Of a stretch of 64,000 nt of DNA, positions 16,182-57,188 are shown in pieces; position 1 is the first letter of the stretch, and every line of letters starts with the position of its first letter. A program made the translations under genes and the position numbers. Below the pieces are notes generated by a model that was given only the letters and a program-made list of their open reading frames with translations, was not told the origin of the DNA and did not search any database. This stretch comes from Tagaea sp. (GTDB taxonomy: Bacteria; Pseudomonadota; Alphaproteobacteria; CACIAM-22H2): the NCBI GenBank assembly GCA_965279525.1, contig CBDIIB010000004.1, positions 64,001 to 128,000 on the forward strand, read 5' to 3'.

Positions 16182-16193
16182 GCAGACTTTCGG

Positions 16194-16754
16194 CTACGGC
16201 CGCAGTGCGTCGAGGGCAAGATTGAGGCCGAGAACATCGACCCGTGGCTGCCCCAGTATGCCGAGTTCCCGGCCGTACGTGAACTGTGTCAACAGGTTCC
16301 GGACCCGGGCTTCCGGTAACCCGAGTGCGGCGGCAACCCGCGCGACCTGGCGCTCGGCGTTTGCAGGCGAGATATGCGGGTCAAGGCCGGATGCGGATGC
16401 CAGAACAGCATCTGCAGGCACCGGCTTCGGCCCTCCAAATGTTTCGACGTCGATCTTCACGCGCTCGATAAGCTTGGCCGACGTCGGCCCTAGATTGGCA
16501 CCGCCGGAAGACGTCGGGTCATAACCGCCGCTGCCGGCGGCAGACGGCCGTCCGTGGAAATATCGGCCGTTGGCGAAATTCTGGCCGATCAGTGCCGATC
16601 CGATGACACGACCGTCGCGTTCGATCAACGAGCCGTTAGCGGAATGGCGAAACGCAATCTGGCCGATACCGGTAACCAGCAGCGGATAGAGCACGCCGCA
16701 AATCACCGAAAACGCGATCAGTAGAACAAAGGCAGGGCGGACATGGACGTACAT
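16194..16754 (-). CDS. kdpC: K+-transporting ATPase subunit C
   Basis: ANGSL, GSALIGQ, YFHGRPSA and ASASGLDPHISP motifs. Confidence 0.95.
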   Translation of the reverse strand: MYVHVRPAFVLLIAFSVICGVLYPLLVTGIGQIAFRHSANGSLIERDGRVIGSALIGQNFANGRYFHGRPSAAGSGGYDPTSSGGANLGPTSAKLIERVKIDVETFGGPKPVPADAVLASASGLDPHISPANAERQVARVAAALGLPEARVRNLLTQFTYGRELGILGQPRVDVLGLNLALDALRP

Positions 16755-16762
16755 GGCAAACC

Positions 16763-18802: not shown

Positions 18803-18826
18803 GGTCGTTGTTCCTTTGCTGCGCGA

Positions 18827-20845: not shown

Positions 20846-20954
20846 ATTGCTCTTGGTTTCCACCCATTTCCCTCCGTTGCCGGAAGTCATGGAAACCGCC
20901 TCGAAATCATCGAATAGTCGAGAAACTGGGGGACTGGGAGTCGTTGGTTCGAAT
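20846..20954 (+). repeat. att-like junction copy 1: arm sequence plus degenerate tRNA-Pro(GGG) anticodon loop to T-loop
   Basis: About 45/51 identity by eye to 57017-57067, followed by CTGGGGGACTGGGAGTCGTTGGTTCGAAT. Confidence 0.75.
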
Positions 20955-20985: not shown

Positions 20986-21312
20986 TCATCGGCGGAGCGA
21001 TAGAATATACGCCACGATATCGTTGATCTCGTTTCTGGTCAGGGCATTGCTCGGCATGCGCTGATGCGGGGTCTGCAGCAGGACGTTGAGACTGATCGAA
21101 GTGGTCGAGGTAAGTGCTGCAACTGCAGCAAAAGCCGGGGCCGGATCGAGGGCACTCGATTGCCCGGATTCGCCCGTGTTGTGGCACGAGGCGCACAAGC
21201 GCTCGGATGTCTCGCGGCCGCGATCCGCGTCGCCGGCAGACTGTGCGATGGCTACCGGTGCGGACGCAATTATCGCTCCAAAGACGAGTGGAATGAGTGC
21301 GCGCTTCAACAT
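20986..21312 (-). CDS. Small periplasmic monoheme cytochrome c
   Basis: Signal peptide, CASCH heme motif, distal HQRMP Met. Confidence 0.88.
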   Translation of the reverse strand: MLKRALIPLVFGAIIASAPVAIAQSAGDADRGRETSERLCASCHNTGESGQSSALDPAPAFAAVAALTSTTSISLNVLLQTPHQRMPSNALTRNEINDIVAYILSLRR

Positions 21313-21393
21313 CTTCTGTCCTGCCTGACTGCGGCCGCCAGTTTGCGTTTGCCGTTAACCGACGCTAGCGACCGGCGTTTCGGCAGTACAGGT

Positions 21394-21408
21394 TCGGATT
21401 CTACCCAA
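21394..21408 (-). promoter_or_regulatory. FixJ-like box (TTGGGTAGAATCCGA)
   Basis: Copy of the recurrent 15-mer, about 80 bp upstream of the cytochrome c gene. Confidence 0.5.
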
Positions 21409-21654
21409 TCCAGCCGTCAGCCAGATCTTGAACTGGCGTTCCACACTATCGGATTTCGGCGATCGGCCCCGGTGAAGTTCGGCCAGATCCAGCCTCTCGA
21501 ACCGGTCGTCGAGATGCAGCAATCTCTCATTCTGCTTGGTTCAAGAACTCGGTCAGATCATTCGTCGTGTTCATCGCGGCAAGCGAGGCGATCTGGTTCA
21601 TGAGCTGGCGACGCAGGTCGCGCGACGGCAAATGAGCGGTGGCTTCCGGAAATG

Positions 21655-21686
21655 AAAAGGCCCGCCACTTCGCAGTGGCGGGCCTT
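21655..21686 (-). terminator. Rho-independent terminator after the lipoprotein gene
   Basis: AAGGCCCGCCACT-N4-AGTGGCGGGCCTT hairpin with a short U-tract on the minus strand. Confidence 0.75.
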
Positions 21687-21711
21687 CCTGCGTCAGGCGT
21701 GTCCGGCGAGG

Positions 21712-21954
21712 CTAGCGCCAGATCGGCCGGCCGAGATTGATCTGGCTCTCGTTCGTGAGGGCACCGGTACCGGCACCCACGGCACCGCCGATCAGCGCAC
21801 CCTCGATCGGAGCGCCGACGATGAGCCCGCCAAGCGCACCGACACCGGCACCGATGCCGGCACCGCTCATCGCGCGATCGCCCGTGCTGTTTCCGCAAGC
21901 GGACAGCGCAAGCATCAGGGCGAACAGGGATCCCGTCGATATGATGCGTTTCAT
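21712..21954 (-). CDS. Small glycine-zipper lipoprotein (OsmB/YMGG-like)
   Basis: Lipobox LSAC, GAGIGAGVGA repeats, AGGAGA RBS. Confidence 0.85.
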   Translation of the reverse strand: MKRIISTGSLFALMLALSACGNSTGDRAMSGAGIGAGVGALGGLIVGAPIEGALIGGAVGAGTGALTNESQINLGRPIWR

Positions 21955-22097
21955 GTTCCGTCTCCTCGTGTACTTTCCCGAACCGGGCAGGATTGCGCGG
22001 GTGTGGGGTGCAATTGCCGCTCGATGGGCAACCCTGTCTTCGATTGTCTGGATATGGTTGAACGGCCGGACCCGGCCGGATATTCCGTCCGTGCGCG

Positions 22098-22556
22098 CTA
22101 GCCGGGCAGCTTGCGGCCGGCCATGAACCCGCCGACGAGGGCGAGTGCTGCCAGCTGCATCGGCGAGAGTGACTTCGAGAGCTGGGCCAGCCCGGCCAGC
22201 GCAGGGGCGGCGGATGCCGCACCGTTGCCGGTCAGTGTGTCGATCACGGCTGCAAGGCCGTCGGTCTGGATGGCGTTGCCGGGAGCCGCCTTGGTTCCTT
22301 CTCTCAGATGCTTGCGGCAGCCGACCGCCAGTGCCGCGACCGCCGCGGCACCGACGGCGAACGCAGCGGCAAGGATAATCGCCGCTTCCGGGGCAGTGAA
22401 GCCGTCGAGCAATGCCCGATAGACGGCAAGGCTCACGAACCCCAGGGCGATGGCACCGAAGGCCCACGACGTCGCCACGACCAGAAGCCATGCGGCGCGT
22501 CGTTCGAGCCACCCGTCCATTGCATCGCGGACCGGAAGCAGGAGAGGTGCGAGCAC
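22098..22556 (-). CDS. Membrane protein, YqjE/holin-like partner of DUF883
   Basis: Two TM helices plus C-terminal ALVGGFMAGRK; follows the ElaB-like gene. Confidence 0.65.
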   Translation of the reverse strand: MLAPLLLPVRDAMDGWLERRAAWLLVVATSWAFGAIALGFVSLAVYRALLDGFTAPEAAIILAAAFAVGAAAVAALAVGCRKHLREGTKAAPGNAIQTDGLAAVIDTLTGNGAASAAPALAGLAQLSKSLSPMQLAALALVGGFMAGRKLPG

Positions 22557-22562
22557 TGCCCG

Positions 22563-22877
22563 TCAGCCGCGCGAGCGGGTGACGAGGGCGATCGACATGC
22601 CGATGCCGAACGCGATCAGCACCGCCATCAGCGGATTGTGCTCGATCCCGGCCTCGACCTTGGCGCCGACAGCCTTGACCTGCGTCCGGGCATCTGCGGC
22701 CGTGTCGGAGATCTTGTGTCCGACATCGGAAACGACTTCGGCGACGCGAGATCCTGCGGAGCTTGCCTGATGCTGGATCATGGTGCCGACGGATTCCGCA
22801 AGCTTCCCGACTTCTTCGCGCAGGGCGGCAATGTCGTTCGAGAAGTCACCGATGGGCGGATCGATATGCTTTGTCAT
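22563..22877 (-). CDS. ElaB/YqjD/DUF883-family membrane-anchored stress protein
   Basis: DIAALREEV coiled coil and C-terminal IEHNPLMAVLIAFGIG anchor. Confidence 0.85.
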   Translation of the reverse strand: MTKHIDPPIGDFSNDIAALREEVGKLAESVGTMIQHQASSAGSRVAEVVSDVGHKISDTAADARTQVKAVGAKVEAGIEHNPLMAVLIAFGIGMSIALVTRSRG

Positions 22878-22968
22878 CTGTATTTCCATTCTCGGCAGCT
22901 GTTCGCTGCCGTTGCGGGGTTGAGAGTTGTTGGGGTGGAGCGGTGTGGGAACAATCGCACGTGACAAC

Positions 22969-23424
22969 TCACAAGGATGGAGCGCCGATCGAGATCCATT
23001 GCGATGTCGCGCCGTCGAAGCGGACGGCGTCGGCATTCTGGAGGGACTGCCGCGATGCCCGGATGACGAGGAGGTTGCTGTTGCGCCGGTCGGCGATCTC
23101 GACGGAATCGATCGGGATCTCGATATTCTTGTCGCCCGTACCGAGTGTCGCTCCGACGCCGACGATCAGGCCCGTGATCCGGCCGGTGACCGGCGACATG
23201 ACGACGTCGCTGACCCGGCCGATGACGATATTGCCCGTGCCATGGACATCGCGATTGAACCAGTCCAACGGTGGTGTTGCATGGATCAATTCTCCGGTCG
23301 GGAGCGCAGGACGCTGAGGCGACCGGACTTCGGTTCGCGGCGCCCATGCCGTGCGGTCAGCCGTCGCGATGTCGTCCGTGACGAGGAACACGAGGGCGAA
23401 TGCCAGGATCGTTGCCGTCTTCAT
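22969..23424 (-). CDS. Exported PRC-barrel domain protein
   Basis: Signal-like N-terminus; IGRVSDVV..LIVGVGATLGTGDKNIEIP. Confidence 0.75.
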   Translation of the reverse strand: MKTATILAFALVFLVTDDIATADRTAWAPRTEVRSPQRPALPTGELIHATPPLDWFNRDVHGTGNIVIGRVSDVVMSPVTGRITGLIVGVGATLGTGDKNIEIPIDSVEIADRRNSNLLVIRASRQSLQNADAVRFDGATSQWISIGAPSL

Positions 23425-23470
23425 CGACTTGCGCTCCCCCGGTTTCCGGACAGGATCGAAGCATAGGCCG

Positions 23471-24100
23471 CTAGCGGACCGCTGCGGCAGCCTCGGAAAG
23501 TACCCTATCGGCTTCGAGTGGCGGACCGACTCGTGACAAGGCATCGACCGCATGCACGTCGATGCTCGCGGGAATCGCGGAACGAAGGACGGTCCGCGCG
23601 CGTGCGATCTCGAGTCCGTCGCCATGTGCCATGACAAGGCATCCGTTGGCGTTGACTGCGAACTCGTAACGCACGACGTGTTCTCCCGGAATTCCGATGC
23701 CGCTCAGCACGGTGCCCAGCCGGGCCATCGATGCGGCGGCTCCGTCGGCGAAGTCCGTCGCCCGCCTGGCGAGATACCCCAGTGCCACGACCGGGGTGGA
23801 TGGTTCGGCGGGCGCGACATTTGCGTCGAGAAGCGTGCTTTCTATCTCACTCCAGAATGCGGTCCGATTACCAGCGTGGCGGGCCGGAGCCGCACCATTT
23901 GCAGGAGAAAGACCAGGTCCTCGCCGGGGATACCCTTTGCCGACGATGCTAAGGCTCCCCGTTCCGAAGCCGACATCGATCAGTCGCATGATGGCCGGCC
24001 CGGCTTCACGATGATCGGCAAAGATGGCGACGACGATGTCGGCGATCCTGATGGACTGGGTCGCGAGTTGGGGCGAAGCAGGGCGGCGTCGATGGGGCAC
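23471..24100 (-). CDS. General stress protein-like (DUF1269/YflT-like), diverged
   Basis: VVAIFADH..LSIVGKGY and GIGIP.EHVVRYE..V..G..LVMAHG motifs. Confidence 0.65.
   Translation of the reverse strand: MPHRRRPASPQLATQSIRIADIVVAIFADHREAGPAIMRLIDVGFGTGSLSIVGKGYPRRGPGLSPANGAAPARHAGNRTAFWSEIESTLLDANVAPAEPSTPVVALGYLARRATDFADGAAASMARLGTVLSGIGIPGEHVVRYEFAVNANGCLVMAHGDGLEIARARTVLRSAIPASIDVHAVDALSRVGPPLEADRVLSEAAAAVR
23493..23507 (-). promoter_or_regulatory. FixJ-like box (TAGGGTACTTTCCGA)
   Basis: About 70 bp upstream of the PRC-barrel gene start at 23424. Confidence 0.6.
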
Positions 24101-24177
24101 GTCATGTGTCTTTCGTTCGGGGAATTGTCCGACTGATCCTTAAAACAATGACAGCCACTGGAGGGTTGGCGGCAGGG

Positions 24178-24192
24178 TCGGAAAATACCTAC
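24178..24192 (-). promoter_or_regulatory. FixJ-like box (GTAGGTATTTTCCGA)
   Basis: About 78 bp upstream of the general stress protein gene. Confidence 0.6.
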
Positions 24193-24451
24193 GCGCGGAC
24201 CGGGTACTCAGGCCGGAGATATCCGCTGCAATTCGAGGGATTTGACGCACAGCGACTCATGCGTGTCTGTGATGCCGGTTGCGGCGCCACGACTGGAAAG
24301 CCGCGTTCGTCCGATGGAGCTCGCTCGAAGGATCGAGTCATTCGAAAGCAGGCGTGTCGTGCCGCCGCCCGCGCGATGTCGTCGGGTTTTCGGATTCACG
24401 GAACGGGCAATTTTGTGTCGCGTTCGTGCAGGAGCGTTCGGGTACTTACCT

Positions 24452-24466
24452 TCGGAAAGTACTCAG
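24452..24466 (-). promoter_or_regulatory. FixJ-like box (CTGAGTACTTTCCGA)
   Basis: 14/15 identical to the box at 28968; lies in the divergent intergenic region upstream of the hybrid kinase. Confidence 0.6.
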
Positions 24467-24572
24467 TCAGATTCGGCGAATATGCGCGTCAATTTCGAAA
24501 CGTGTCGTCTGTATCCGTGGTAGCCTCGCTACTCGAACGGGTATCGGCCGCGACATCAAAGAAAGAACCAGA

Positions 24573-27500
24573 ATGCGCAATGGCTCGTCCCCGGCAGGCA
24601 AGAAAGCGGATGCGGATGCGAACGCAAGGAAGCGTTCGAAGATCATCCCGCACAACACGTCTTCCCATACGACGATCGTCGGAATCGGTGCGTCGGCTGG
24701 CGGACTCGATGCCTGCCGGAAGTTCGTCGGTGCCGTACCGGCGAAAAGCCAGATGGCGTTCATTCTCATACAGCATCTCGAGCCCACACATGAAAGCATG
24801 ATGGTCGATCTGCTTTCCGACCATACCTCGCTCGTCGTTCATCAGGCCATCGACGGCGCGGAAATCGAGCCCAACACCCTCTATGTGATTCCGCCGGGGA
24901 CGTATCTTTCGATCGTGCGGGACAGGTTGCAGGTGTCGCCGCCGGACGCCCGCCACGGCGCGCGCCTTCCGTTCGACTTCCTTCTCCACAGCATGGCTGA
25001 CCAACTCGGCGCGCGTGCGATCTGCGTCGTCCTTTCGGGAACCGGGGCGGATGGCAGCTTGGGCCTGCGTGCCGTCAAGGCGGCCGGCGGGCTCGTCGTG
25101 GCACAGGATCCCGACGAAGCGGGATATGGCGGCATGCCCCGAAGCGCCATCATGACCGGTGCCGTCGATCTGGTGCTTCCCGTCGCGAAGATCCCGCAGG
25201 CTCTCATCGACAAAGGCAACATGCGTGTCTCCCGGGGCGTCCGGACAGGCATGCGTCCGGCCACGGTCGGGCCGGACGATGTCGGCGAGGTCGTCGAGAT
25301 CCTGCGGACGATGACCACGCACGACTTCTCGCTCTACAAGACGGGCACGTTGCGTCGACGGATCGAGCGGCGCATGGCGATGGCACCCGTGGGTCCGGTA
25401 AACCTGCCGAAGTATCTCGAGATGCTCCGATCCGATGCGAGCGAGCGCGACATCCTCGCGAACGACCTGCTCATCAACGTCACCCAGTTTTTCCGCGATC
25501 CGGAAGTTTTCGACCTGCTGGCCAAGAATGTCGTTCCCGATCTCCTGCATGCGCACAAGTCCGGCCAGACCCTGCGCGTATGGATCGCAGGCTGCAGCAC
25601 GGGCGAGGAGGCATACTCTCTCGCGATGGTCTTCCGGGACGCGATCGCGGCGGCGCAAGCCAACATCAAGATCCAGATATTCGCATCGGATGTCGATTCC
25701 GGCGCGATCGCCCATGCACGGGAGGGGCTGTATTCCGACACGATCGAATCCGACGTAAGCGCCGACCGGCTTTCGCGCTTCTTCACCAAGGAAGATGACG
25801 GCTACAGGGTGCTGCCCGACCTCAGGTCGATGGTTGTCTTCACGGTCCAGGACCTGCTCGCGGACCCGCCGTTCTCGCGGCTCGATTTCGTATCGTGCCG
25901 GAACCTGCTGATCTATCTGAGCCCGGAGGCGCAGGCGAAGGTGATCGCGCTGTTCAACTTCGCCCTGGTCAAGGGTGGCATCCTCCTGCTGGGCGGTGCG
26001 GAGACCGTGCGCAACCCCGACGCGCGGTTCGAGGAGATATCAAAGACCGCCCGCATTTACCGGCATGTCGGCAATCGCGACGAACCCGGGATGAGTGCGG
26101 CTTCCGTCTTCTCGGAGAGCATCCGTGCTCCGGTCCGTCCGAAGGTCGGTCAGGCCCCGTCGCGGCAGTCGATGCTTGCCGAACTTTGCCGGCGACTGGT
26201 GCTGGATAGCTTTGCGCCGGCCGCCGTGCTCATCAACCGCAACCACGATTGCCTGTTCTCGCTCGGCCCCGTCGACCGTTATCTTCGTCTGGCTCAGGGA
26301 CCACCCACGCACGATCTGCTTTCGATGTTCCGGGAGGGGACGCGGGTCGTCCTCCGGGCGGCGATCGAGCGGACGTCACGGGAGAATATCCGCGTCGTGG
26401 TGCCGGGCGGCCGGATCGAAAGGGATGGTGTCGAGACCGCATTCAGCATTTCGGCGCAGTCCGTGGTCAGCGAAGGAGAGCAGCTTTTCCTGATCTGCTT
26501 CATCGACGCGCCGAAGAGCGCGCAGAAGCGGATGCCGACTGCGACGGAGGAGAACGGGTCGCGGACCGCCGAGCTGGAGCACGAACTCGAGTCGACCCGT
26601 CTCGAACTCCAGGGTGCGATCCGCAATCTCGAGATCTCGACGGAAGACCAGCGGGCGATCAATGAAGAAGCGCTGTCGGTCAACGAAGAATACCAGTCGA
26701 CCAACGAGGAGCTCTTGACCTCGAAAGAGGAACTCCAGTCGCTCAACGAGGAACTTATCGCGCTGAACGGGCAGCTGCAGGAGACGCTCGAACGCCAGAG
26801 GACGACATCGAGCGATCTGAAGAACGTTCTCTACAGCACCGACGTCGCGACGATCTTCCTCGATCGGGACTTGAATATCCGCCTCTTCACGCCGGCGACG
26901 CGCTCGCTGTTCAACGTCATCCCGGGCGACGTAGGGCGGCCGCTGGCCGACCTGCAGTCGCTCGCGTCGGATTCGAACCTTATGGCGGAAGCACAGTCGG
27001 TGCTGGAAAATCAGGTGCCCGCCGAGCGGGAAGTCGAAACGGCGAAGCGCGAATGGTTCGTGCGCAGGATCGTGCCCTATCGGTCGCACGACGACTCGGT
27101 TCTGGGCGTCGTCATAACGTTCAACAACGTCACCGACCGCAAGAATATCGCCCTGGCACTTGAAGCGGCGAAGCATCAGGCCGAGCAGGCGAACCTCGCG
27201 AAGTCGCGTTTTCTCGCCGCCGCGAGCCACGATCTGCGCCAGCCGCTGCAGACGCTTGCACTCGTCCAGGGCCTCCTCGCCAAGACCGTCGACGCGACGA
27301 AAGTCCAGAAGCTCGTGGTCCGCCTCGACGAGACACTCGGCGCGATGTCGGGGATGCTGAACACGCTGCTCGACATCAACCAGATCGAATCGGGCATCGT
27401 GCAGGCGGAGCTCACGAGCTTTCCGCTCGCGGAAATGCTTGCCCGGCTGAGGGACGAGTTCACCTACTATTCGGAAGCGCAGGACGTCTCGCTCCGGTTC

Positions 27501-28538
27501 GTTCCGTGCAGTCTTTCGGTTTCCAGCGATCGGTACCTGCTCGAGCAGATACTCCGCAATCTTCTGTCCAACGCGCTCAAGTATGCGAAAGGCGGCAAGG
27601 TTCTGGTCGGGTGCCGCCGAAGGGCCGGGAAGGTCGTGATCGAGGTCTGCGACAGCGGAATCGGCATTCCCGAATCCGAACTCGATGCGATTTTCGAGGA
27701 ATACCACCAGGTCGGCAACGTCGCCCGCGAGCGCAATCGGGGGCTGGGCCTCGGTCTGTCGATCGTCAGGCGCCTCGGAATTCTTCTGGGACACAAGATC
27801 GCCGTCCGGTCGAAGCTCGGACATGGATCGAAGTTCTCGATCGAGATTCCGGACCGTGTCGCCGTAACGCCTGCGACGCCGGAAGCATTGCGCGGCAAGC
27901 TCGACGGCGGTGCAACCCTCAAGCGGGCCGGAACGATCCTCGTCGTGGAGGACGACCCGGAAGTCCGCGAACTGATCGAGATGCTGCTCGTCGACGAGGG
28001 GCACCGTGTCGTCGCGGCACCGGACGGTATCGCCGCACTTGAACTCGTCCGGCGCGGAACGGTGCGGCCAGATCTGGTCCTGACCGACTACAATCTGCCC
28101 AACGAGGTCGACGGGCTGCAGGTCGTGATGCAGGTGCGCGAGAAGATCCAGAGACTGGTTCCGGCGGTCATCCTGACCGGGGACGTCACGACCGAGACGT
28201 TGCGCAAGATTTCGAGCCAGAACTGCGTCCATCTCGGCAAGCCGATCAAGGCGGCCGAGCTATCGGAGCTGCTCCAGCGTTTGTTGCCTGCCCGAAGACC
28301 TTCCGAGCCTTCCGTCAATCCGCAGGCAAAGGCGGGCGGAGGCCCGGACAGCATCGTGATCCACGTCGTCGACGACGACGATGGCGTGCGCGATGCGCTC
28401 TGCGACGTTCTCGAAGGGAACGGGCATGTCGTCCATCGCTATGCGACGGGCGAGACGTTCCTTGCCGAATACCGGCCGGCCGGGCGGGCAGGGATGCCTG
28501 CTGGTCGACGCCTATCTGCCGGGCATGAACGGTCTTGA
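24573..28538 (+). CDS. CheB methylesterase-CheR methyltransferase-PAS-histidine kinase-REC hybrid (frameshifted within its second REC domain)
   Basis: GASAGG/QH/GADG CheB triad, GCSTGEEAYS and CRNLLIY CheR motifs, SHDLRQP H-box, GLGLGL G2 box, VLTDYNLP REC, second REC start IHVVDDD. Confidence 0.92.
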   Translation: MRNGSSPAGKKADADANARKRSKIIPHNTSSHTTIVGIGASAGGLDACRKFVGAVPAKSQMAFILIQHLEPTHESMMVDLLSDHTSLVVHQAIDGAEIEPNTLYVIPPGTYLSIVRDRLQVSPPDARHGARLPFDFLLHSMADQLGARAICVVLSGTGADGSLGLRAVKAAGGLVVAQDPDEAGYGGMPRSAIMTGAVDLVLPVAKIPQALIDKGNMRVSRGVRTGMRPATVGPDDVGEVVEILRTMTTHDFSLYKTGTLRRRIERRMAMAPVGPVNLPKYLEMLRSDASERDILANDLLINVTQFFRDPEVFDLLAKNVVPDLLHAHKSGQTLRVWIAGCSTGEEAYSLAMVFRDAIAAAQANIKIQIFASDVDSGAIAHAREGLYSDTIESDVSADRLSRFFTKEDDGYRVLPDLRSMVVFTVQDLLADPPFSRLDFVSCRNLLIYLSPEAQAKVIALFNFALVKGGILLLGGAETVRNPDARFEEISKTARIYRHVGNRDEPGMSAASVFSESIRAPVRPKVGQAPSRQSMLAELCRRLVLDSFAPAAVLINRNHDCLFSLGPVDRYLRLAQGPPTHDLLSMFREGTRVVLRAAIERTSRENIRVVVPGGRIERDGVETAFSISAQSVVSEGEQLFLICFIDAPKSAQKRMPTATEENGSRTAELEHELESTRLELQGAIRNLEISTEDQRAINEEALSVNEEYQSTNEELLTSKEELQSLNEELIALNGQLQETLERQRTTSSDLKNVLYSTDVATIFLDRDLNIRLFTPATRSLFNVIPGDVGRPLADLQSLASDSNLMAEAQSVLENQVPAEREVETAKREWFVRRIVPYRSHDDSVLGVVITFNNVTDRKNIALALEAAKHQAEQANLAKSRFLAAASHDLRQPLQTLALVQGLLAKTVDATKVQKLVVRLDETLGAMSGMLNTLLDINQIESGIVQAELTSFPLAEMLARLRDEFTYYSEAQDVSLRFVPCSLSVSSDRYLLEQILRNLLSNALKYAKGGKVLVGCRRRAGKVVIEVCDSGIGIPESELDAIFEEYHQVGNVARERNRGLGLGLSIVRRLGILLGHKIAVRSKLGHGSKFSIEIPDRVAVTPATPEALRGKLDGGATLKRAGTILVVEDDPEVRELIEMLLVDEGHRVVAAPDGIAALELVRRGTVRPDLVLTDYNLPNEVDGLQVVMQVREKIQRLVPAVILTGDVTTETLRKISSQNCVHLGKPIKAAELSELLQRLLPARRPSEPSVNPQAKAGGGPDSIVIHVVDDDDGVRDALCDVLEGNGHVVHRYATGETFLAEYRPAGRAGMPAGRRLSAGHERS
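28472..28483. repeat. (CCGG)3 tandem repeat at the frameshift site
   Basis: ACCGGCCGGCCGGGCGGGCAG; deleting one CCGG gives EYRPGGQGCLLVDAYLPG. Confidence 0.85.
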
Positions 28539-28971
28539 ACTTCTGCTGCATCTGCGGTCGATCGGCGATCCCCTGCCGTCCATCATGATCACGGGCAGCG
28601 GCGACGTGTCGATGGCCGTCGACGCGATGAAGGCCGGGGCCCTCGATTTCATCGAGAAGCCGATCGGTGCAAGGGAGCTATCGGACTGCGTCTCGCGCGC
28701 GCTCGATCTTTCGAAGAACTCCGGAATGCTGGCGGCGTGGAAGGCCAAGGCGGCCAAGCAGTTGTCCGGCCTCAGCGCCCGCCAGCGCCAGATCATGGAG
28801 ATGGTGCTTGCCGGACACCCGAGCAAGAACATCGCTGCCGATCTCGGCCTGAGCCAGCGCACGGTCGAGAATCACCGGGCCGCGATCATGCGCAAGACTG
28901 GCGCCAAGTCGTTGCCGGCATTGGCGCGGCTGGCGCTTGCCGCCGTCCACGGCGGCGCCGAAACCCCCTGA
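28484..28971 (+). pseudogene. Out-of-frame C-terminus of the hybrid: rest of REC2 plus FixJ/LuxR HTH
   Basis: CLLVDAYLPG, AMKAGALDFIEKP and LSARQRQIM..GHPSKNIAADLGLSQRTVENHRA, all in the +1 frame. Confidence 0.85.
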
Positions 28972-28982
28972 GTAGTTTCCGA
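28968..28982 (+). promoter_or_regulatory. FixJ-like box (CTGAGTAGTTTCCGA) upstream of PRC-barrel-pgaABCD
   Basis: Overlaps the hybrid's stop codon, about 105 bp upstream of ATG 29089. Confidence 0.62.
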
Positions 28983-29088
28983 AGCTTCCGACGGGTTGCG
29001 GGCACCCTCTAAGGTGCCGACATGTCTGGATTGTCTTCGGCGGGCGCCCGCCTGCCGACACGATCGCAGGAAGAGGGTCCACCCACGC

Positions 29089-29481
29089 ATGAAACGGTCA
29101 TCGGCAGCTGCCGCGATAGCATTCGCATGTTCGGTTTTTCTCGCCGGTCCGGCGTTCGCCCAGGGAGCGCCACAGGTCATCCTGATCGAGCGCGTCGACG
29201 TCCAGAAAATGTCCGCGGGGTACCGTGCGACGAAGATCGTCGGCAGTTCGGTCGTCAATGAGGCGAACGACAAGATCGGCGAGATCGAGGACCTTCTCGT
29301 CCAGGCGAGCGACAGGGTCCTCTACGCGGTCCTTTCGGTCGGCGGCTTCATCGGGATCGGCGAGCGGCTGGTCGTCGTGCCGTTCCAGGGCCTGCGGATC
29401 ACCGACGACAGGATCATGCTCCCGGGCGGCACCAAGGCGGCCCTGCTCGAACTCGCAGAATTCAAATATGCGGTCAAGTGA
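29089..29481 (+). CDS. Exported PRC-barrel domain protein
   Basis: Signal peptide; YRATKIVG..KIGEIEDL..AVLSVGGFIGIGERLVVVP. Confidence 0.9.
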   Translation: MKRSSAAAAIAFACSVFLAGPAFAQGAPQVILIERVDVQKMSAGYRATKIVGSSVVNEANDKIGEIEDLLVQASDRVLYAVLSVGGFIGIGERLVVVPFQGLRITDDRIMLPGGTKAALLELAEFKYAVK

Positions 29482-31945
29482 CGCCGTCCTCGCCTGCCTG
29501 CTTGCCCTCGGCCTGCTTGGCGCAGGTACGGCGGCCGCCCAACCTGCCTGGCACCGGGAACGGATCGAAGCGGTCGACGGGGCACGTCGCGGGCAGACGG
29601 CACCCGCCCTCACGATTCTCGATCGGCTCCAGCGCGAGCATCCAGACGATATCGGGGTCCTATACGACCTGATCGTCGTGTCGGTCTGGGCGCGGCAGGA
29701 CGCGGAAGCGCTGCAGCTCTACGCGCGTCTGCCGCAAGGCGTGCCTGCGGACTATGTGCTCGAAGCCGTCGGCGTGGCGCTCCGGCGGACCGGCGATCCG
29801 GCGGCGGCACTGGCCCTCTATCGGCAGGCCCTGCGCCGATCGCCCGACAACCCCGAATTCCGCGCCGGCGAGATCCGCTCGCTCGCCGATCTTGGCGACA
29901 CGGCGCCGGCCCTCGCGATCGCGGACGCCGATCTGGCCGCACGCGGCGAGCATGGCGACGTGCTGCTGGCCGCGGCCTATGCGGCCTCGAAGAGCAAGCG
30001 CCCCGTCGTCGCGTTGGTGTATCTCGACCGGGCACTCCGTCTCGACCCGGCGAACCGCGAAGCCCGCCACGACCGGATCGTCGCGATCGACGAGATGGGT
30101 GCTCCGCAGGTGGCAAGGGCGCTCGCCGAGGCCGAGCCCGGGCTGCTGTCGGCCGCCGAGCTGCGGCGTGTCGAAGGCAACGAAGCGGCTGCCCTCGTGC
30201 GATGGGGCGTGCTCGAACCGCCGAGCGAAGAGCTGCGCTTCGCCGCCAGCGACCGGGCGATCGCGGCACTCGACGCGCTGATCGCGCGCTGGTCGCTTGA
30301 GGGCGAGGCGGCACAACCCGACATTCTGCGCGCGCGCTTCGACCGGATGGTGGCACTGCGCGACCGCGTGCGGATGGACGACGTGCTTGCCGAATATGCC
30401 GCCCTGACGCGCGAAGGCGCAGACCTGCCGGGGTTCGCGACTGTCGCGGCGGCGGACGCGCATCTCTACACGCGCCAGCCGGAGATCGCGCGCGACCTGT
30501 TCCGCCAAGGGCTCGCCGTCGATCCGCGCAACCCCGAGACGCGCCTTGCCCTGTTCTACGCCCTCGTCGAACTCGACGACTTCACGGCCGCCTACGACGA
30601 GGCCGACCGCGCCGCGTCCGACCAGGCGGTGTGGCTCTATCTGAAGGGGCTCACCGATCCCGTCCCGAACCCCGATCGCGCGACCGCCGATTTGACCGCA
30701 GCCAACGCACGCCTCTTTGCCGACGAGCTCGTCGAAGCCTATCGACGCATCTCCGCGATGGCCGAGGCCGCACCCAACAATTCCCGTTTCCGCACGGCAC
30801 TGGCGAATGTCTATGCCGCACGCGGTTGGCCGCGGCTGGCGGCACAGGAATATCAGGTCAGCCGCGCGCTGGTCCCGAGGAACGTGTCGAATGAGGTCGG
30901 CGAGGCAAGGAACCTGCTACAGCTTCGCGAGTACCGGTCGGCCGAGACGCGGGTCGCGGACCTGGTCCGCCGCTTTCCCGAGAATCTCGAAGTGCGGCGG
31001 CTTGCCCGTCTCTGGGACGTCCACAACATGGCCGATCTGCGGATCAACGCCGAGCGGGGGATCCGGTCCGCCACCAGCATCCAGGGCGGCTCCGGGCTGT
31101 CGCTGGGCGCGCAGGTCTATTCCTCGCCGTTCAGCTACAACTGGCGCATGTTCGCCGCCGCCGCAATGGTCAACGAAGGCCTGCCGGCAGGCGAGGGTGC
31201 GATAAATCTGCGCCGGTCGGCGCTGGGTTTCGAGTATCGCGATCCGTCGCTCGTCGCGAGTCTGGAAGGCACCCTCAGCGTCTATGGGCCTGAAAAGGGG
31301 AACACGCTGTGGAGCGGCATCGGCGGCGGACGGGCGGGCGCGCGCGCCCAGGCGACATGGAGCACCAGCGACAAGTGGCAGGTCGGCGGGACGGCCGAAA
31401 TTTTCGCGCGCGACACGCCCCTGCGCGCATTGCGCAACGGGATAACGGCCGATGCGGCATCGGCACGGATCGGCTATCGGGAAAGCGAATCTCGCCAGTA
31501 TGTGCTCGATATTTCCGGGATGACTTTCTCCGACGGAAATCGTCGCGCCGGCATCGGCGGGCGATACGTCGAGCGCCTGTGGACGTCGCCGAGGCTTGCC
31601 ATCGACGGAACTCTCGGCGTTGCCGGAACGCGCAATAGCGCCGACGCCAACAGGCCCTATTTCAACCCGAAGCAGGACGCGCTCGTCTCGTATGGCGTGG
31701 CGATCGTGCAACCGATCTACCGGCGTTACGAGTTCGTCTACGACCACCGCCTCGTCGTCACGCCGGGCATCTACTGGCAGCAGGGCTTCGGCAGCGGGAC
31801 GGCGTTCAACGTTCTCTACGAGCATCGCGTGCGCGCCAACGACGTATTCGAAGCCGGGCTCGGCCTCAGCTACGGCCGCCAGCCCTATGACGGCAATCTC
31901 GAAACCAACATGGCGGTTCTCTTCAACACAAGAATCAGGTTCTAG
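29468..31945 (+). CDS. pgaA: PNAG export porin (TPR plus beta-barrel)
   Basis: TPRs, RARFDRMVAL, ARGWPR, YFNP, PYDG, terminal Phe; operon context. Confidence 0.92.
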   Translation: MRSSDAVLACLLALGLLGAGTAAAQPAWHRERIEAVDGARRGQTAPALTILDRLQREHPDDIGVLYDLIVVSVWARQDAEALQLYARLPQGVPADYVLEAVGVALRRTGDPAAALALYRQALRRSPDNPEFRAGEIRSLADLGDTAPALAIADADLAARGEHGDVLLAAAYAASKSKRPVVALVYLDRALRLDPANREARHDRIVAIDEMGAPQVARALAEAEPGLLSAAELRRVEGNEAAALVRWGVLEPPSEELRFAASDRAIAALDALIARWSLEGEAAQPDILRARFDRMVALRDRVRMDDVLAEYAALTREGADLPGFATVAAADAHLYTRQPEIARDLFRQGLAVDPRNPETRLALFYALVELDDFTAAYDEADRAASDQAVWLYLKGLTDPVPNPDRATADLTAANARLFADELVEAYRRISAMAEAAPNNSRFRTALANVYAARGWPRLAAQEYQVSRALVPRNVSNEVGEARNLLQLREYRSAETRVADLVRRFPENLEVRRLARLWDVHNMADLRINAERGIRSATSIQGGSGLSLGAQVYSSPFSYNWRMFAAAAMVNEGLPAGEGAINLRRSALGFEYRDPSLVASLEGTLSVYGPEKGNTLWSGIGGGRAGARAQATWSTSDKWQVGGTAEIFARDTPLRALRNGITADAASARIGYRESESRQYVLDISGMTFSDGNRRAGIGGRYVERLWTSPRLAIDGTLGVAGTRNSADANRPYFNPKQDALVSYGVAIVQPIYRRYEFVYDHRLVVTPGIYWQQGFGSGTAFNVLYEHRVRANDVFEAGLGLSYGRQPYDGNLETNMAVLFNTRIRF

Positions 31946-31947
31946 CC

Positions 31948-33888
31948 ATGCGCGTCATGTCCACTCTGCTTGCGATTTTCCTCGCATATTCGGTTCCGAC
32001 ATCCGCAAGCGCGACTTTCGTGGCGCTGGCCTACCACAATGTCGAGGACGCGGATCCCGACCAGTCCTTCCTCGGAATCACGACGGACAAGTTCGTCTCG
32101 CAGCTGAGCTGGCTCCAGCGCAACGGCTACCGGCCCGTCACCGTCGACGCGATCCTCGCCTCGCGTGACGGCGGCCCGCCGCTGCCCGACAAGGCGGTGC
32201 TGCTGACGTTCGACGACGGCTACGCAAGCTTCGGCACGCGCGTGCTGCCGATCCTGAAGGCCTTCCGGTTTCCCGCGGTGCTGGCGGTGGTCGGTGCATG
32301 GATGGAGCCTGTTCCGGTCGTGCAATTCGGTGACCGGCGGGTCGCGCGCGAGCAGTTCCTGTCGTGGGACCAGGTCCGCGAGATCGCGGCGTCCGGGCTC
32401 GTCGAGATCGCATCGCATACCTACGACCTGCATCGGGGCACGACTTCCAATCCGCAGGGGAACTCGGCGCCCGACGTGACGACCAAGAGCTTCGATCCGG
32501 CGACCGGAGATTACGAGACCGACACGAAGGAGCGCCGCGACCTGTCGGGCGACAGCGCCAGGATCGTGGCCGCGATCGAACGCGAGACCGGGAAGCGGCC
32601 GCGCGTGACGGTCTGGCCCTATGGTGAGCACAGCGAAAGCGCAATATCGATCGTGACGGCCAGCGGCATGCCGATCACGTTCACGCTGGTGGACGGATCG
32701 GCGTCTGTCGACAGACTCAGCGCGGTCCAGCGCCATCTGGTCAGTCCGGATCCGGCAATCGGCCAGTTCGTCTCGGAGCTGCGCAATCTCGACGTCGTGC
32801 CGCCCCAGCGGATTGTTCATGTCGATCTCGACTATGTCTACGACGACGATCCGGTCCAGCTGGAGCGGAACCTCGACCTTCTGGTCCAGCGCATCTACGA
32901 CATGCAGATAAGCACGGTCTTCCTGCAGGCGTTCGCGGATCCCACGGGCAGCGGCCTTGCGGGCGCGGTCTACTTCCCGAACCGGGTGCTGCCGATGCGC
33001 TCGGACCTGTTCGACCGAGTGTCCTGGCAGCTGCGCACGCGGGCGCGCGTCAAGGTGTTCGCGTGGATGCCGGTCCTGGCATTCGATTTCGGCGATCGTG
33101 TCTCTCCCGTGCTCGCGTGGGACCCGTCGACCGGAAGGGCGGTGCAGGATCCCAAGGCCTATCGCCGCGCTTCGCCCTTCGACCCCGAGGCGCGGCGGCG
33201 CATCCTGATGCTCTACGAGGATCTGGCGCGCTTCACGCCGTTCGAGGGGCTGCTGTTCCACGACGACGCACAGCTCTCCGATTTCGAGGACGCGAGCCCC
33301 GCTGCACTCGCGGCTTACCGGAGTGCCGGATTTCCGGAATCGATCGGAACGATTCGAGCCGATCCGGCAATGATGCGGCGCTGGACCCGCTTCAAGACCG
33401 ACGCGCTTCTGGCATTCACGCAGGAATTGACGGCCCGGGTGCGCCAGTTCCATTCGCCGATGGCGACCGCGCGCAGCCTCTATGCCGGCCCGGTCCTGGA
33501 TCCGGACGCCGAAGCATGGTTCGCGCAGGATCTCGGCCGGTTCCTGTCGACCTACGACTACGCGGCCGTGATGGCGATGCCAGCGATGGAGAACGTGCCC
33601 GCGGCGGAAGGACAGGCATGGCTCGGGCGGCTGGTGGCGGCTGTCGCCCTCCATCCCGAAGGCCTCAAACGCACGATCTTCGAGCTTCAGGCCGTCGACT
33701 GGCGGGACAGGGCAGGGGACGGCGCGCGCCGGATACCGACAGCCATCCTGGCCGAGCAGATGCGGCTGCTGACCCGGCTGGGCGCGCTGAACTTCGGATA
33801 CTACCCGGACGATTTCGTCTCCGGGCATCCGGATGCACGGGAACTGCACCGCGATTTTTCACTCCAGTCGTATCCGTATCTAAGATGA
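31948..33888 (+). CDS. pgaB: PNAG N-deacetylase/glycoside hydrolase
   Basis: LTFDDGY, SHTYDLH, HVDLDYVYD, LFHDDA and GYYPDDF motifs. Confidence 0.95.
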   Translation: MRVMSTLLAIFLAYSVPTSASATFVALAYHNVEDADPDQSFLGITTDKFVSQLSWLQRNGYRPVTVDAILASRDGGPPLPDKAVLLTFDDGYASFGTRVLPILKAFRFPAVLAVVGAWMEPVPVVQFGDRRVAREQFLSWDQVREIAASGLVEIASHTYDLHRGTTSNPQGNSAPDVTTKSFDPATGDYETDTKERRDLSGDSARIVAAIERETGKRPRVTVWPYGEHSESAISIVTASGMPITFTLVDGSASVDRLSAVQRHLVSPDPAIGQFVSELRNLDVVPPQRIVHVDLDYVYDDDPVQLERNLDLLVQRIYDMQISTVFLQAFADPTGSGLAGAVYFPNRVLPMRSDLFDRVSWQLRTRARVKVFAWMPVLAFDFGDRVSPVLAWDPSTGRAVQDPKAYRRASPFDPEARRRILMLYEDLARFTPFEGLLFHDDAQLSDFEDASPAALAAYRSAGFPESIGTIRADPAMMRRWTRFKTDALLAFTQELTARVRQFHSPMATARSLYAGPVLDPDAEAWFAQDLGRFLSTYDYAAVMAMPAMENVPAAEGQAWLGRLVAAVALHPEGLKRTIFELQAVDWRDRAGDGARRIPTAILAEQMRLLTRLGALNFGYYPDDFVSGHPDARELHRDFSLQSYPYLR

Positions 33889-35198
33889 TCGCGGGCCTGT
33901 TCGGCACAGCACTGGTATTCGCGATCGCGGTGCTGGCGAAGCTCGGCGGTTTCCTGCTGCAGTTCGTCTTTCTCTATCCGCTGTTCATGTCGTTCCTGTG
34001 GATGGTCGGCGCGGTCTATTTCTACTGGCACTGGGAACGGCGGGGCGTGCGTTCGGAGAGTCCTCCGGTCATCGAGAATCCGCCGATGGTCTCGATACTA
34101 GTGCCCTGCTTCAACGAAACCGCGAATGTCGCTGAGACGATCGCGGCTGCGGTCGCGCAGACCTATCCGAACTTCGAGGTGATCGCGATCGACGACGGCT
34201 CGAGCGACACGACAGGGGCGGTCCTTGACCGCCTGACTGCGGCATATCCGATGCTCCGGGTCGTCCACTTTGCCGGGAACCAGGGCAAGGCGATGGCGCT
34301 TCGCATGGGCGCCCTTGTCGCGCGCGGGGAGTTTCTGGTCTGCATCGACGGCGATGCCGTCCTCGATCCCGACGCGACGACGTACATGGTGCGGCTTCTC
34401 GTCAACAGTCCGCGCGTCGGTGCGGTAACGGGAAATCCCAGAATCCGCACGCGTTCGACGTTGCTGGGCAAGCTCCAGGTCGGCGAATTCTCGTCGATCA
34501 TCGGACTGATCAAGCGGGCGCAACGCATCTATGGCTGCGTCTTCACGGTGTCGGGCGTGATTGCCGCTTATCGGCGGGCCGCACTGCACCGCTGCGGATA
34601 CTGGAGCCTCGACATGATCACCGAGGACATCGACGTGAGCTGGATGCTCCAGGCAGATCACTGGAGCATCCAGTACGAGCCCGACGCGCTGTGCTGGATC
34701 CTCATGCCCGAAACGTTCGGGGGCCTTTGGAAGCAGCGCCTGCGCTGGGCGCAAGGTGGGGCGCAGGTCTTCCTGAAGCAGATCCGCCACATGTTCGCGT
34801 GGAATCGCCGGCGGATGTGGGGCGTGCTTATCGAGTACTGCCTAAGCCTCGCGTGGGCCTTCGCGCTGGTCCTGACATTCGTGCTGTGGGGCATCGGCAA
34901 GTTCGTCGCGATGCCCGAAGGCCTAAACGTCGCAACCATCCAGCCGCCGGCATTCTGGGGGCTGTTGCTGGCCACGACGTGCCTTGCCCAGTTCGCGTTG
35001 GCACTGCTGATCGAGTCACGCTACGAAACGCGACTGTTCCGGCTGATCTTCTGGGTCATCTGGTATCCCTTCTTTTTCTGGATACTGACATTGACGACGT
35101 CGCTCGTCGGATTCGCCAGGGCGCTCGGGCAATTGCGCGGCAAGCGCGCGTTGTGGACAAGCCCGGATCGGGGGATCACGTCATCCGCCCGTCGCTGA
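33885..35198 (+). CDS. pgaC: PNAG synthase (GT2)
   Basis: PCFNE, DDGS, DGD, TED and QRLRW motifs. Confidence 0.96.
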   Translation: MIAGLFGTALVFAIAVLAKLGGFLLQFVFLYPLFMSFLWMVGAVYFYWHWERRGVRSESPPVIENPPMVSILVPCFNETANVAETIAAAVAQTYPNFEVIAIDDGSSDTTGAVLDRLTAAYPMLRVVHFAGNQGKAMALRMGALVARGEFLVCIDGDAVLDPDATTYMVRLLVNSPRVGAVTGNPRIRTRSTLLGKLQVGEFSSIIGLIKRAQRIYGCVFTVSGVIAAYRRAALHRCGYWSLDMITEDIDVSWMLQADHWSIQYEPDALCWILMPETFGGLWKQRLRWAQGGAQVFLKQIRHMFAWNRRRMWGVLIEYCLSLAWAFALVLTFVLWGIGKFVAMPEGLNVATIQPPAFWGLLLATTCLAQFALALLIESRYETRLFRLIFWVIWYPFFFWILTLTTSLVGFARALGQLRGKRALWTSPDRGITSSARR

Positions 35199-35638
35199 TA
35201 ATCGACAGCTCGGGCAAGCGGCCGGCCTGGCGCCGGCGGCTCGATTGGCTGCTTTCGGCGGGGATGTGGATTCTCTATCTCTATTTCGTCCGCGAAGCGT
35301 TGGCTGACATTTATGAGCTTACGATCGAGGCTTTCGCGTGGGCCTTCCAGGGGGCCGACTGGCCGGAGTTGCCGTCAATGTCGCGTCTCTACGGCACGTT
35401 GCTGACGTACGGCATCATTGCCGTAGCCAACGGCGCATTGCTTATCGCTTGGGCGCTCTACAATCAGGTCCGGTTTCGCGGACAGGATCGTCACGTGGCG
35501 CAATCTCCTGTCGTTCCGGCCGATCTTGCAGTGCTCTACGGGGCTTCGGTCGCCAGCGTCGAAGCTTGGCAGTCTGCGCGGATACTGACGATGCGACACA
35601 GTCCAGATGGCACTTTGATCGATGTCGACATCAAATAG
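35183..35638 (+). CDS. pgaD: PNAG biosynthesis protein PgaD (start uncertain)
   Basis: LIID.., two TM segments, LIAWALYNQVRFRG; follows pgaC. Confidence 0.85.
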   Translation: MRPSLIIDSSGKRPAWRRRLDWLLSAGMWILYLYFVREALADIYELTIEAFAWAFQGADWPELPSMSRLYGTLLTYGIIAVANGALLIAWALYNQVRFRGQDRHVAQSPVVPADLAVLYGASVASVEAWQSARILTMRHSPDGTLIDVDIK

Positions 35639-57016: not shown

Positions 57017-57188
57017 ATTGCTCTTGATTTCCATCCATTTCCCTTCGTTGCCGAAGTTCATGGAAACTGTCATTCAAATCATTGAATAACCGGAAGTCTG
57101 GGGGACGCAGGTTCGAATTCTGCCGCTCCGCCCATCAAAGAAGCCCGCCGACCGGAACTCCGGTCGGCGGGCTCGTCATTTCGAGGTG
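57017..57188 (+). repeat. att-like junction copy 2: arm, tRNA-Pro(GGG) 3' half remnant and terminator hairpin
   Basis: CTGGGGG anticodon loop, GCAGG-TTCGAAT-TCTGC T-arm, CGCTCCGCCCA end, then hairpin 57142-57173. Confidence 0.8.

Follow-up and report, generated by a model that had tools for sequence, protein, structure and literature searches.

A MAC1-type sensor kinase with a FixJ-family DNA-binding domain and its predicted promoter box at a stress-gene and pgaABCD locus of Tagaea sp.

What would a regulator control that carries methylation enzymes, a histidine kinase and a DNA-binding domain of the FixJ family in one chain? The question is raised by positions 20986 to 35638 of a 64-kb stretch of Tagaea sp. 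DNA (contig CBDIIB010000004.1 of assembly GCA_965279525.1), here called the window, in which such a regulator gene lies between small envelope and stress genes on its left and a PRC-barrel gene with pgaABCD, for poly-N-acetylglucosamine (PNAG) synthesis, on its right. An initial annotation had taken the region for a self-contained, mobile stress-plus-PNAG regulon. Our comparison of homologous loci and genomes points elsewhere: the regulator probably represents a family of MAC1-type sensor kinases fused to their own transcription factor, which would activate stress genes through a conserved promoter box. The box is conserved among the homologues and the gene list is not.

The N-terminal frame of the window gene runs from the ATG at 24573 to the stop at 28538 (plus strand) and encodes CheB, CheR, PAS, a coiled coil, a second PAS, HisKA, HATPase, a first receiver (REC1) and the start of a second (REC2), followed by 20 out-of-frame residues; the Pfam matches are CheB, CheR_N, CheR, PAS_10, HisKA, HATPase_c and a receiver. 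The rest of REC2 and a FixJ-family helix-turn-helix (HTH) domain lie in a second frame (28480-28971, plus strand), in which Pfam recognises a partial receiver and a GerE HTH. The frames join within the second receiver at three tandem CCGG units (28472-28483, plus strand), where a 4-nt duplication separates the HTH from the rest of the sensor, which has 1465 positions when read through with an X. The domain order of the initial annotation is therefore confirmed by Pfam, but its single open gene is not, and the window copy cannot produce the HTH in frame. An assembly error was rejected as the cause of the frameshift, as contigs from all four runs carry the same break and cross it without an indel; these contigs come from two samples of one study, possibly including the source sample, and rare variants are lost in contigs. 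One of them differs at 16 other places, and the 15 that were listed are all past 32160. The tandem CCGG repeat occurred in none of 55 homologue regions. For divergence at conserved positions the window protein ranked 100th of 101 sequences (6.5 % against a median of 2.7 %), in a set chosen around a different query, and this fits relaxed selection.

The family is large. With an intact homologue from genome G003 as query (1451 aa, 53 % identical to the window protein), 3337 of 8000 scored proteins matched at E of at most 1e-40; GerE was present in all 120 matches listed, and 100 of these were 1380-1520 aa long. Intact genes also occur in cultured strains, e.g. of Nitrospirillum iridis, Roseiarcus fermentans and Xanthobacter autotrophicus. 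For the comparison of surroundings, 71 homologue loci were selected by protein alone (kinase-to-HTH alignment search, best 80 of 532 matches). CheB, CheR and HTH were in a single frame in 47 of them, while five were cut by a contig end, 12 were split and seven had no HTH in the fetched DNA. The 12 split regulators, and that of locus L121, are interrupted between CheB/CheR and the HTH, and isolate genomes (L062, L085) are among them; the splits may be sequencing errors or recurrent loss of the input module.

The initial annotation had also proposed a shared 15-bp box on both sides of the regulator. Its 15-mer, TTCGGAAANTACTCAG, is present exactly at 24451 (plus strand) and 28968 (minus strand), and five matches with at most three mismatches were found against 0.68 expected. 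The two exact copies stand, but the copy at 24448-24465 has no CT tail, no -10 element and no gene start nearby. The box is longer and more general than this 15-mer: read on the strand of the target gene, its 18-base consensus is T[GA][AG]GTAG[TA]TTCCGA-N2-CT. A looser pattern, derived from five genus loci and the window and then tried on the 71 loci, gave 171 matches in 60 of them, while five approximate dinucleotide shuffles averaged 1.4, and the earlier link of the box to this regulator family is borne out in this form. A search of the literature for the exact box strings returned no bacterial-regulation paper, judged by title, among the matches listed, RegPrecise, subscription journals and supplements lying outside the search.

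A weight matrix was built from the 71 loci, so that the intergenic and -10 counts obtained with it on the same loci are not an independent test. Of its 249 sites, 247 lie outside called genes. TA-N3-T follows at offset 42/43 in 136 of 247 distinct sites, whereas other offset pairs averaged 2.1 and never exceeded 6, and the opposite direction gave at most 6 per offset. Such a fixed, one-way spacing from box to -10 is activator-like geometry. With the box centre at about -46 and the CT tail at the -35 position, we infer an activator that contacts the sigma-70 polymerase. A scan with the generic sigma-70 consensus gave nothing above shuffles, as expected for activator-dependent promoters.

Exactly five matrix sites (score of at least 10) are found in the window, all between 21386 and 28990 of its 64 kb. 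On the minus strand, Box 1, a variant (21390-21407, score 19.8), lies upstream of the cytochrome c gene with TAGCGT at -10, Box 2 (23489-23506) about 60 bp upstream of the first PRC-barrel gene with TATGCT, and Box 3 (24174-24191, score 28.8) upstream of the general stress protein gene with CATTGT. Box 5, the strongest of the window (28969-28986, plus strand, score 33.3), precedes the second PRC-barrel gene and pgaABCD and has TAAGGT. TA-N3-T is thus present in three sites, CATTGT in one, and neither tail nor -10 in the degenerate Box 4 (24448-24465, minus strand), which has no gene start nearby in its working direction. In homologues, the box of a divergent gene sits at the position of Box 4; here, 24050-24600 showed no trace of the receiver or Dps gene that usually stands there in divergent orientation. 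Activation of the regulator's own gene through the box upstream of it was rejected, as the orientation of this box aims at the divergent gene in the homologues examined.

Which protein reads the box was approached through its distribution. Six of the seven loci without an HTH in the fetched DNA are also without a box. In the genus, the nine of 21 genomes with at least three exact boxes are the same nine that have a REC-HTH match at E of at most 4.4e-54; four others have one box (two of these beside a PAS-HTH protein) and eight have none. Twenty genomes outside the genus have no box, including seven with FixJ-like matches of 38-44 %. CheB-CheR fusions occur in G020, G033 and G040, which have neither a close REC-HTH match nor a box. 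In 250 genomes of the class, two or more boxes were found in seven, compared to one for a reversed control pattern. The box was present in six of the seven genomes with the best REC-HTH matches, approximately 1-9 kb from the gene, the seventh (G227) having a FixJ-type helix, and in two of 52 genomes with weaker FixJ-like matches; four box-bearing genomes had no match. The box-associated HTHs listed all have the recognition helix SQRTVENHRA or a variant of one to two residues and are 70-88 % identical to the window HTH, compared to 41-55 % for FixJ-like HTHs, and the box accompanies this HTH through four architectures. Across genomes, then, the box tracks this HTH subfamily and not FixJ-like proteins, as judged from sequence comparison. 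S. meliloti FixJ binds GTAGTTTCCC / TAAGTAATTTCCCTTA (PMC4999443), and the likeness makes the box plausible as a site for a sister HTH.

Forms of the regulator with fewer domains were also found. A PAS-HTH protein of 333-342 aa with neither kinase nor receiver (L102:8065-9093, L103:5895-6923, L104:4708-5709) has an HTH of the same subfamily and lies in the same small-gene cluster with weaker boxes, as a one-component derivative. Stand-alone REC-HTH proteins, each with a divergent box, occur in L098-L101 and L105 (genomes G003-G006 and G008), and no cognate kinase was found for them. The 1229-aa CheB-CheR kinases of G003, G005 and G006 were rejected as partners, as their architecture differs, they are unlinked, and only one weak site (14.6) was present in four loci.

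In the genome of the window (G000), 22 sites score at least 16, compared to one in the reversed genome: five at the window locus, five around a paralogue on contig C2 and 12 elsewhere. Several of the scattered sites precede lone PRC-barrel, YflT-like, DUF3309, dehydrogenase or HisKA_2 kinase genes among housekeeping genes. The C2 paralogue is intact, with 754 aa in the order PAS-kinase-REC-REC-HTH and without CheB and CheR, and it is 62 % identical to the window protein in the kinase part and 73 % in REC2-HTH; the genome has no separate FixJ-like match. The regulon is thus not self-contained, as 12 of its 22 sites lie outside both regulator clusters, and the paralogue is likely the activator for the window boxes, which would explain why these are intact beside a broken gene. 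Two further observations were made in this genome: at C4:664071-665575 a box stands ahead of paired genes for a PAS-HisKA_2 kinase and a single-domain receiver, parts typical of PhyR-type stress signalling, and the small-gene cluster of the paralogue ends roughly 1 kb from a tyrosine integrase gene (L025:1738-3009, C2:373740-375008).

A downstream open reading frame could be assigned to 183 of the 249 sites, and 60 representatives were scanned with Pfam. The largest groups are single-domain receivers (23 loci), PRC-barrel proteins (11 sites), Dps-like ferritins (10), CsbD (10), YflT-like proteins (7) and OmpA (6); DUF3309, BON, SPFH, Ysc84, glutamate-decarboxylase-like, Zn dehydrogenase, ClpB, Usp and glycosyltransferase genes also occur. 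The earlier suggestion of stress genes as outputs thus gains from PRC-barrel, Dps, CsbD, BON, YflT-like and DUF3309 genes behind boxes, and the box stands ahead of stress genes across Alphaproteobacteria and in two Burkholderiaceae loci. No Crp/Fnr (fixK) target was among the 60 proteins scanned. Taken together, the comparative case for a box, an activator and a stress regulon is strong, and we regard this part of the explanation as very probable.

The targets overlap with the EcfG regulon of Sphingomonas melonis (PMC6599016). An EcfG-type motif, GGAAC-N16-19-CGTT, was found in only two of 247 box regions and ahead of 12 of 4094 genes in G000. NepR was not found above cut-off in the 21 genus genomes with a profile of only 35 positions, and was found in one of five other regulator-bearing genomes tested. 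G000, which is rated 97 % complete, has one PhyR_sigma2 match, a 181-aa ECF sigma factor beside a membrane anti-sigma-like gene. Many hosts of the 71 loci belong to groups which we take to have PhyR and, the NepR profile being short, replacement of PhyR-NepR-EcfG is only a hypothesis.

Can such a sensor be tuned by its own methylation enzymes? CheB and CheR domains stand within one chain with HisKA and HATPase_c and with a receptor-like coiled coil, in which five heptad-spaced Glu-Glu pairs (residues 698-727, encoded at 26664-26753, plus strand) form candidate methylation sites in a helix of about 90 residues. Nine of their ten positions are invariant in the 101 sequences and the tenth is E or D; CheB Ser41, His68 and Asp135, the S-adenosylmethionine (SAM) site motifs, the kinase His and both receiver Asp are conserved. 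The 7-residue spacing fits the receptor methylation pattern. In an AlphaFold2 model of the first 857 modelled residues the order is CheB, CheR, a PAS-like domain unseen by Pfam, a continuous 90-residue helix, a second PAS and the kinase helix, and Foldseek matched it to CheB, CheR (fold matches 1chd and 1af7) and tandem-PAS structures; with a mean pLDDT of 70 and a pTM of 0.36 the packing of the domains is unreliable. The order CheB-CheR-PAS-coiled coil-PAS-kinase is the MAC1 layout, and the protein fits this class, whose members unite CheB and CheR with a coiled coil of glutamate pairs and a histidine kinase in a single polypeptide (bioRxiv 10.1101/2022.05.07.491037; PMC6943060). MiST3 counts MAC proteins as a class (PMC6943060), and the bioRxiv paper states that they had no experimental characterisation as of 2022. 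Our literature search on CheB/CheR fusions with LuxR, stress response or MAC1 found no study of this sensor family among the papers listed; the architecture is of an annotated but unstudied kind. The 'methylation-adapted' sensor of the initial annotation appears plausible from the conserved sites, and the comparative case for methylation tuning of the kinase is moderate, as good for as against.

The explanation that we consider probable would run as follows. A cytoplasmic cue sensed by the PAS domains would set the activity of the kinase, which CheR and CheB may tune by methylating and demethylating the Glu-Glu pairs of the coiled coil. His886 would phosphorylate the C-terminal receiver, and the FixJ-family HTH would dimerise on the box, a pseudo-palindrome with its centre some 46 bp ahead of the transcription start. 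From there, next to the -35 position, it would recruit the housekeeping sigma-70 polymerase to promoters that have only the TA-N3-T -10. The output would be a set of general-stress and envelope genes with membership varying by genome, and the box-driven single-domain receiver and REC1 would probably drain phosphate as feedback. In one pga clade a box would have wired in pgaABCD. In G000 the five local and twelve scattered boxes are most likely served by the C2 paralogue, and the truncated window protein may still act as a kinase in trans.

Several observations weigh against parts of this explanation. In the 250 class genomes, the box was found in 12 and the reversed control pattern in 14, so single exact matches are at chance level. 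G187, a genome rated 100 % complete, yielded no matching regulator for its box cluster (L120, contig C43, five boxes within 7 kb), and none was matched in G176 or G255, which contain two boxes each. The strict TA-N3-T at 42/43 is missing from 111 of 247 sites, the gene calls come from a home-made caller, and related genomes are not independent. By Pfam the CheB domain has no receiver, which makes classical CheB-P feedback impossible inside the protein. Moreover, the regulon persists with forms lacking CheB and CheR (the C2 paralogue, G012, G019) and with kinase-less forms (PAS-HTH, stand-alone REC-HTH).

These last points bear on the alternative of an ordinary hybrid two-component regulator without self-methylation tuning, in which CheB and CheR form an input module that the system can do without and that acts on a different substrate or has a structural function. 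The same boxes and targets with CheBR-less forms, the 12 of 71 loci with a gene split between CheB/CheR and HTH, and the CheB without receiver would all agree with it. On the other hand, the glutamate pairs are nearly invariant and the catalytic residues intact, CheB, CheR and HTH share a frame in 47 loci, and a large number of the split copies come from metagenome assemblies, where the split may be due to sequencing errors; we regard this alternative as unlikely, though less so than the others considered here. Least probable of all is a different reader of the box, either the FixJ of the host or an alternative sigma factor such as EcfG, with co-inheritance on stress islands as the only link between box and regulator. 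It would account for the resemblance to FixJ sites, for the targets shared with the S. melonis EcfG regulon (PMC6599016) and for the boxes of G187, G176 and G255. As candidate readers, however, host FixJ and EcfG were rejected on distribution and motif: G000 has no separate FixJ-like match, 50 of 52 FixJ-like genomes have no box, the FixJ-type word GGGAAA[CT]TAC is not enriched in the 71 loci (two matches against 1.0 in shuffles), the EcfG-type motif and NepR are as rare as described above, and boxes are scattered among housekeeping genes only in genomes that carry the HTH.

The other two alternatives concern the window itself. Its gene could still give an active DNA-binding product, either by slippage on the CCGG units that mends the frame in a fraction of the population or by a translational restart ahead of the break that yields a receiver-crippled, constitutive HTH. 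The break is a short tandem repeat, an ATG at 28426 lies in the HTH frame behind a purine-rich stretch, the window HTH differs little from that of the family, and the local boxes and pga are intact, most pga differences of a second strain (10 of 14) being synonymous. The C-terminal domain of FixJ is constitutively active. However, no contig has another allele, within the limit given above for rare variants, the repeat is absent from the 55 homologue regions, the protein is among the most divergent of its set, and the paralogue accounts for the intact boxes, so that an active product seems improbable. Slightly less probable still is the version of the initial annotation, a self-contained stress-plus-PNAG module run by the window gene and moving as a unit. 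The confinement of the five window boxes to this locus, the box-driven pga of both genus genomes that have it, the boxes near close metagenome relatives of pga and the regulator with its targets between two tRNA-Pro copies in G019 would suit it. Against it stand the broken gene, the 12 of 22 sites elsewhere, the absence of pga from the 71 loci, a gene order and content that differ even in G003, and an array without integrase. As a general rule it is largely refuted and survives only as a lineage-specific arrangement.

The neighbours themselves were largely labelled correctly at first. On the minus strand to the left of the regulator, Pfam supports the small secreted cytochrome c (20986-21312; PF00034, PF13442), the Gly-zipper lipoprotein (21712-21954; PF13441), of which 78 % identical copies lie beside four genus homologues, and the first PRC-barrel protein (22969-23424). 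The other three labels have weaker support. The ElaB/DUF883-like protein (22563-22877) has no Pfam match and a DUF883-named cluster as first match in the ESM Atlas (0.96); its membrane partner (22098-22520) has no Pfam match either and only a lead to Phage_holin_3_6-like clusters (0.90); and the YflT-like general stress protein (23471-24100, start uncertain) has no match of its own, while 35-40 % identical homologues match YflT (PF11181). To judge from the spacing, the first PRC-barrel gene is likely the first of a unit that extends to the Gly-zipper gene, and a perfect GC-rich hairpin (21657-21686) just 3' of the latter is its likely terminator. On the plus strand to the right, the second PRC-barrel gene (29089-29481) overlaps the start of pgaA (29468-31945), which is followed in order by pgaB (31948-33888), pgaC (33885-35198) and pgaD (35195-35638); the four score above the cut-offs of TIGR03939, TIGR03938, TIGR03937 and TIGR03940, respectively, so that the PRC-barrel-pgaABCD arrangement is upheld by Pfam and TIGRFAM.

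This neighbourhood is not conserved. When the window genes were searched by tblastn in the 71 loci, where the counts for small proteins are lower bounds, pgaA-D, the cytochrome c and the membrane partner were found in none, the first PRC-barrel gene in one, the ElaB-like gene in two, the Gly-zipper gene in three, the second PRC-barrel gene in five and the general stress protein gene in six. The co-localisation expected by the initial annotation thus holds for the box (60 of 71 loci) and fails for the PRC-barrel, ElaB-like and pga genes, and pga is not a core output.

Nevertheless, one pga clade is repeatedly tied to the box system, as an accessory. pgaB is present in two of the 21 genus genomes and pga is box-driven in both; in G003 it is part of the regulator cluster, and pgaA has a strong box immediately ahead of it. 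Among metagenome pgaB loci (best 80 of 156), three of the eight closest (63-73 % identical) have a box, two of the three seemingly from one organism, and none of the 72 distant loci has one. In two of the three boxed loci, PAS-GGDEF-EAL genes behind boxes occur together with a REC-HTH of the subfamily described here. In the metagenome contigs L125 and L127 (54-55 % GC), pgaABCD is flanked by such PAS-GGDEF-EAL genes, a PilZ gene and a REC-HTH gene; the boxes of both lack the usual AG flank, and L125 has no box upstream of pgaA.

The tRNA-Pro att remnant reported at the left edge is real but degenerate: the tRNA-Pro(GGG) 3' fragment at 20926-20954 (plus strand) is identical to C4:33405-33433 in 26 of 29 bases and is preceded by an arm of about 80 bp common to the array remnants. 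The next remnant (57098-57130, plus strand), also degenerate, closes a 36-kb segment, of which the region from the cytochrome c gene to pga is the first 14.7 kb and the rest encodes inositol and sugar catabolism; between 35864 and 57011 we found genes for an IolC-like kinase/aldolase, an RpiR regulator, ABC transporters and an arabinofuranosidase, and no boxes. On contig C4 of G000 the tRNA-Pro(GGG) at 33373 is followed by five 3' remnants (further copies at 44016, 56547, 62881 and 121098). C4:33373-121130 thus holds at least five cargo segments in tandem, each ended by a tRNA 3' remnant with the common arm, and looks like integrase-less cassette stacking: none of ten PF00589 matches falls in it, serine recombinases not having been searched. 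The 8.1 kb between two intact tRNA-Pro 3' copies of G019 are filled by a regulator without CheB and CheR, roughly a dozen small genes and five boxes, and the REC-REC-HTH module is also on 25 plasmid records. A mobile unit is therefore supported for G019 but not for 20986-35638, which is part of a 36-kb segment with sugar genes and no tyrosine integrase. The kdp operon (window 13003-20536, L023:10642-18001) is 91 % identical to that of G019, which likewise adjoins a tRNA-Pro remnant and the regulator cluster, in another order.

Within the chemosensory superfamily, the MAC proteins form a widespread branch, for which an origin as precursors or as remnants of chemotaxis systems has been discussed. 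The box, the fixed promoter geometry and the named targets form a built-in readout, and a reporter with one promoter could probe both self-methylation tuning and the signal. More tentatively, and with the odds somewhat against it, the subfamily may be a one-polypeptide general stress response that senses in the cytoplasm, self-methylates its coiled coil and activates a sigma-70 regulon via its box, spreads on small tRNA-targeted cassettes and plasmids, captures scattered host promoters and replaces PhyR-NepR-EcfG where that is absent. In that case a MAC protein would have been given an output for the first time, and adaptation in the manner of chemotaxis would bear directly on transcription. 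The data point to a second route to the general stress response in Alphaproteobacteria, to which the PNAG link is a side branch.

Among known systems, the sensor shares with MAC1 and the KEGG-style 'CheB/CheR fusion protein' the chain of CheB, CheR, glutamate-pair coiled coil and histidine kinase; to this it adds two receivers and a FixJ-family HTH, which indicate transcription as the output, and its box and target set are predictable. With FixL-FixJ of S. meliloti and B. japonicum it has in common the REC-LuxR module (best solved relative 5xso, E 2e-40), a similar site core, GTAGTTTCC, and the PAS-kinase input. Intact homologues have the receiver phospho-Asp followed by the GerE HTH, as in the FixJ/NarL-type family, which the frameshift splits in the window. 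They do not, however, appear to be FixJ orthologues: the site ends in CCGA-N2-CT and its targets are stress genes instead of fixK or nifA, the recognition helix is SQRTVENHRA compared to SPRTIEVYRA or SPRTVEIHRA, and the C2 paralogue (241.6), the stand-alone form (190.6) and the window fragment (159.1) all score below the NCBIfam FixJ cut-off of 255. The kinase, unlike FixL, is fused and NahK/ErcS-like (below cut-off), without a FixL-type assignment.

With PhyR-NepR-EcfG the system shares single-domain receivers, a HisKA_2 kinase and PRC-barrel, Zn alcohol dehydrogenase and glycosyltransferase targets (PMC6599016). It differs in relying on a predicted activator with a sigma-70-type -10 instead of a sigma-factor partner switch, in boxes without enrichment of the EcfG motif and in genus genomes without NepR above cut-off. 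RcsB of the enterobacterial Rcs phosphorelay has a pseudo-palindromic box of 14 bp, and BON and small envelope lipoprotein genes are among its targets. It is likewise of the LuxR family with a promoter-proximal box on capsule genes (PMC5829831), whereas here RcsF, IgaA and HPt parts are missing and a cytoplasmic sensor with methylation enzymes forms one polypeptide; our own literature search on RcsB found nothing, and the likeness is an analogy of function only. Finally, enterobacterial pga is controlled by NhaR, CsrA and c-di-GMP. Here, pga stands behind a box, directly in G003 or after a PRC-barrel gene in the window, and in two metagenome loci box-driven PAS-GGDEF-EAL genes flank it.

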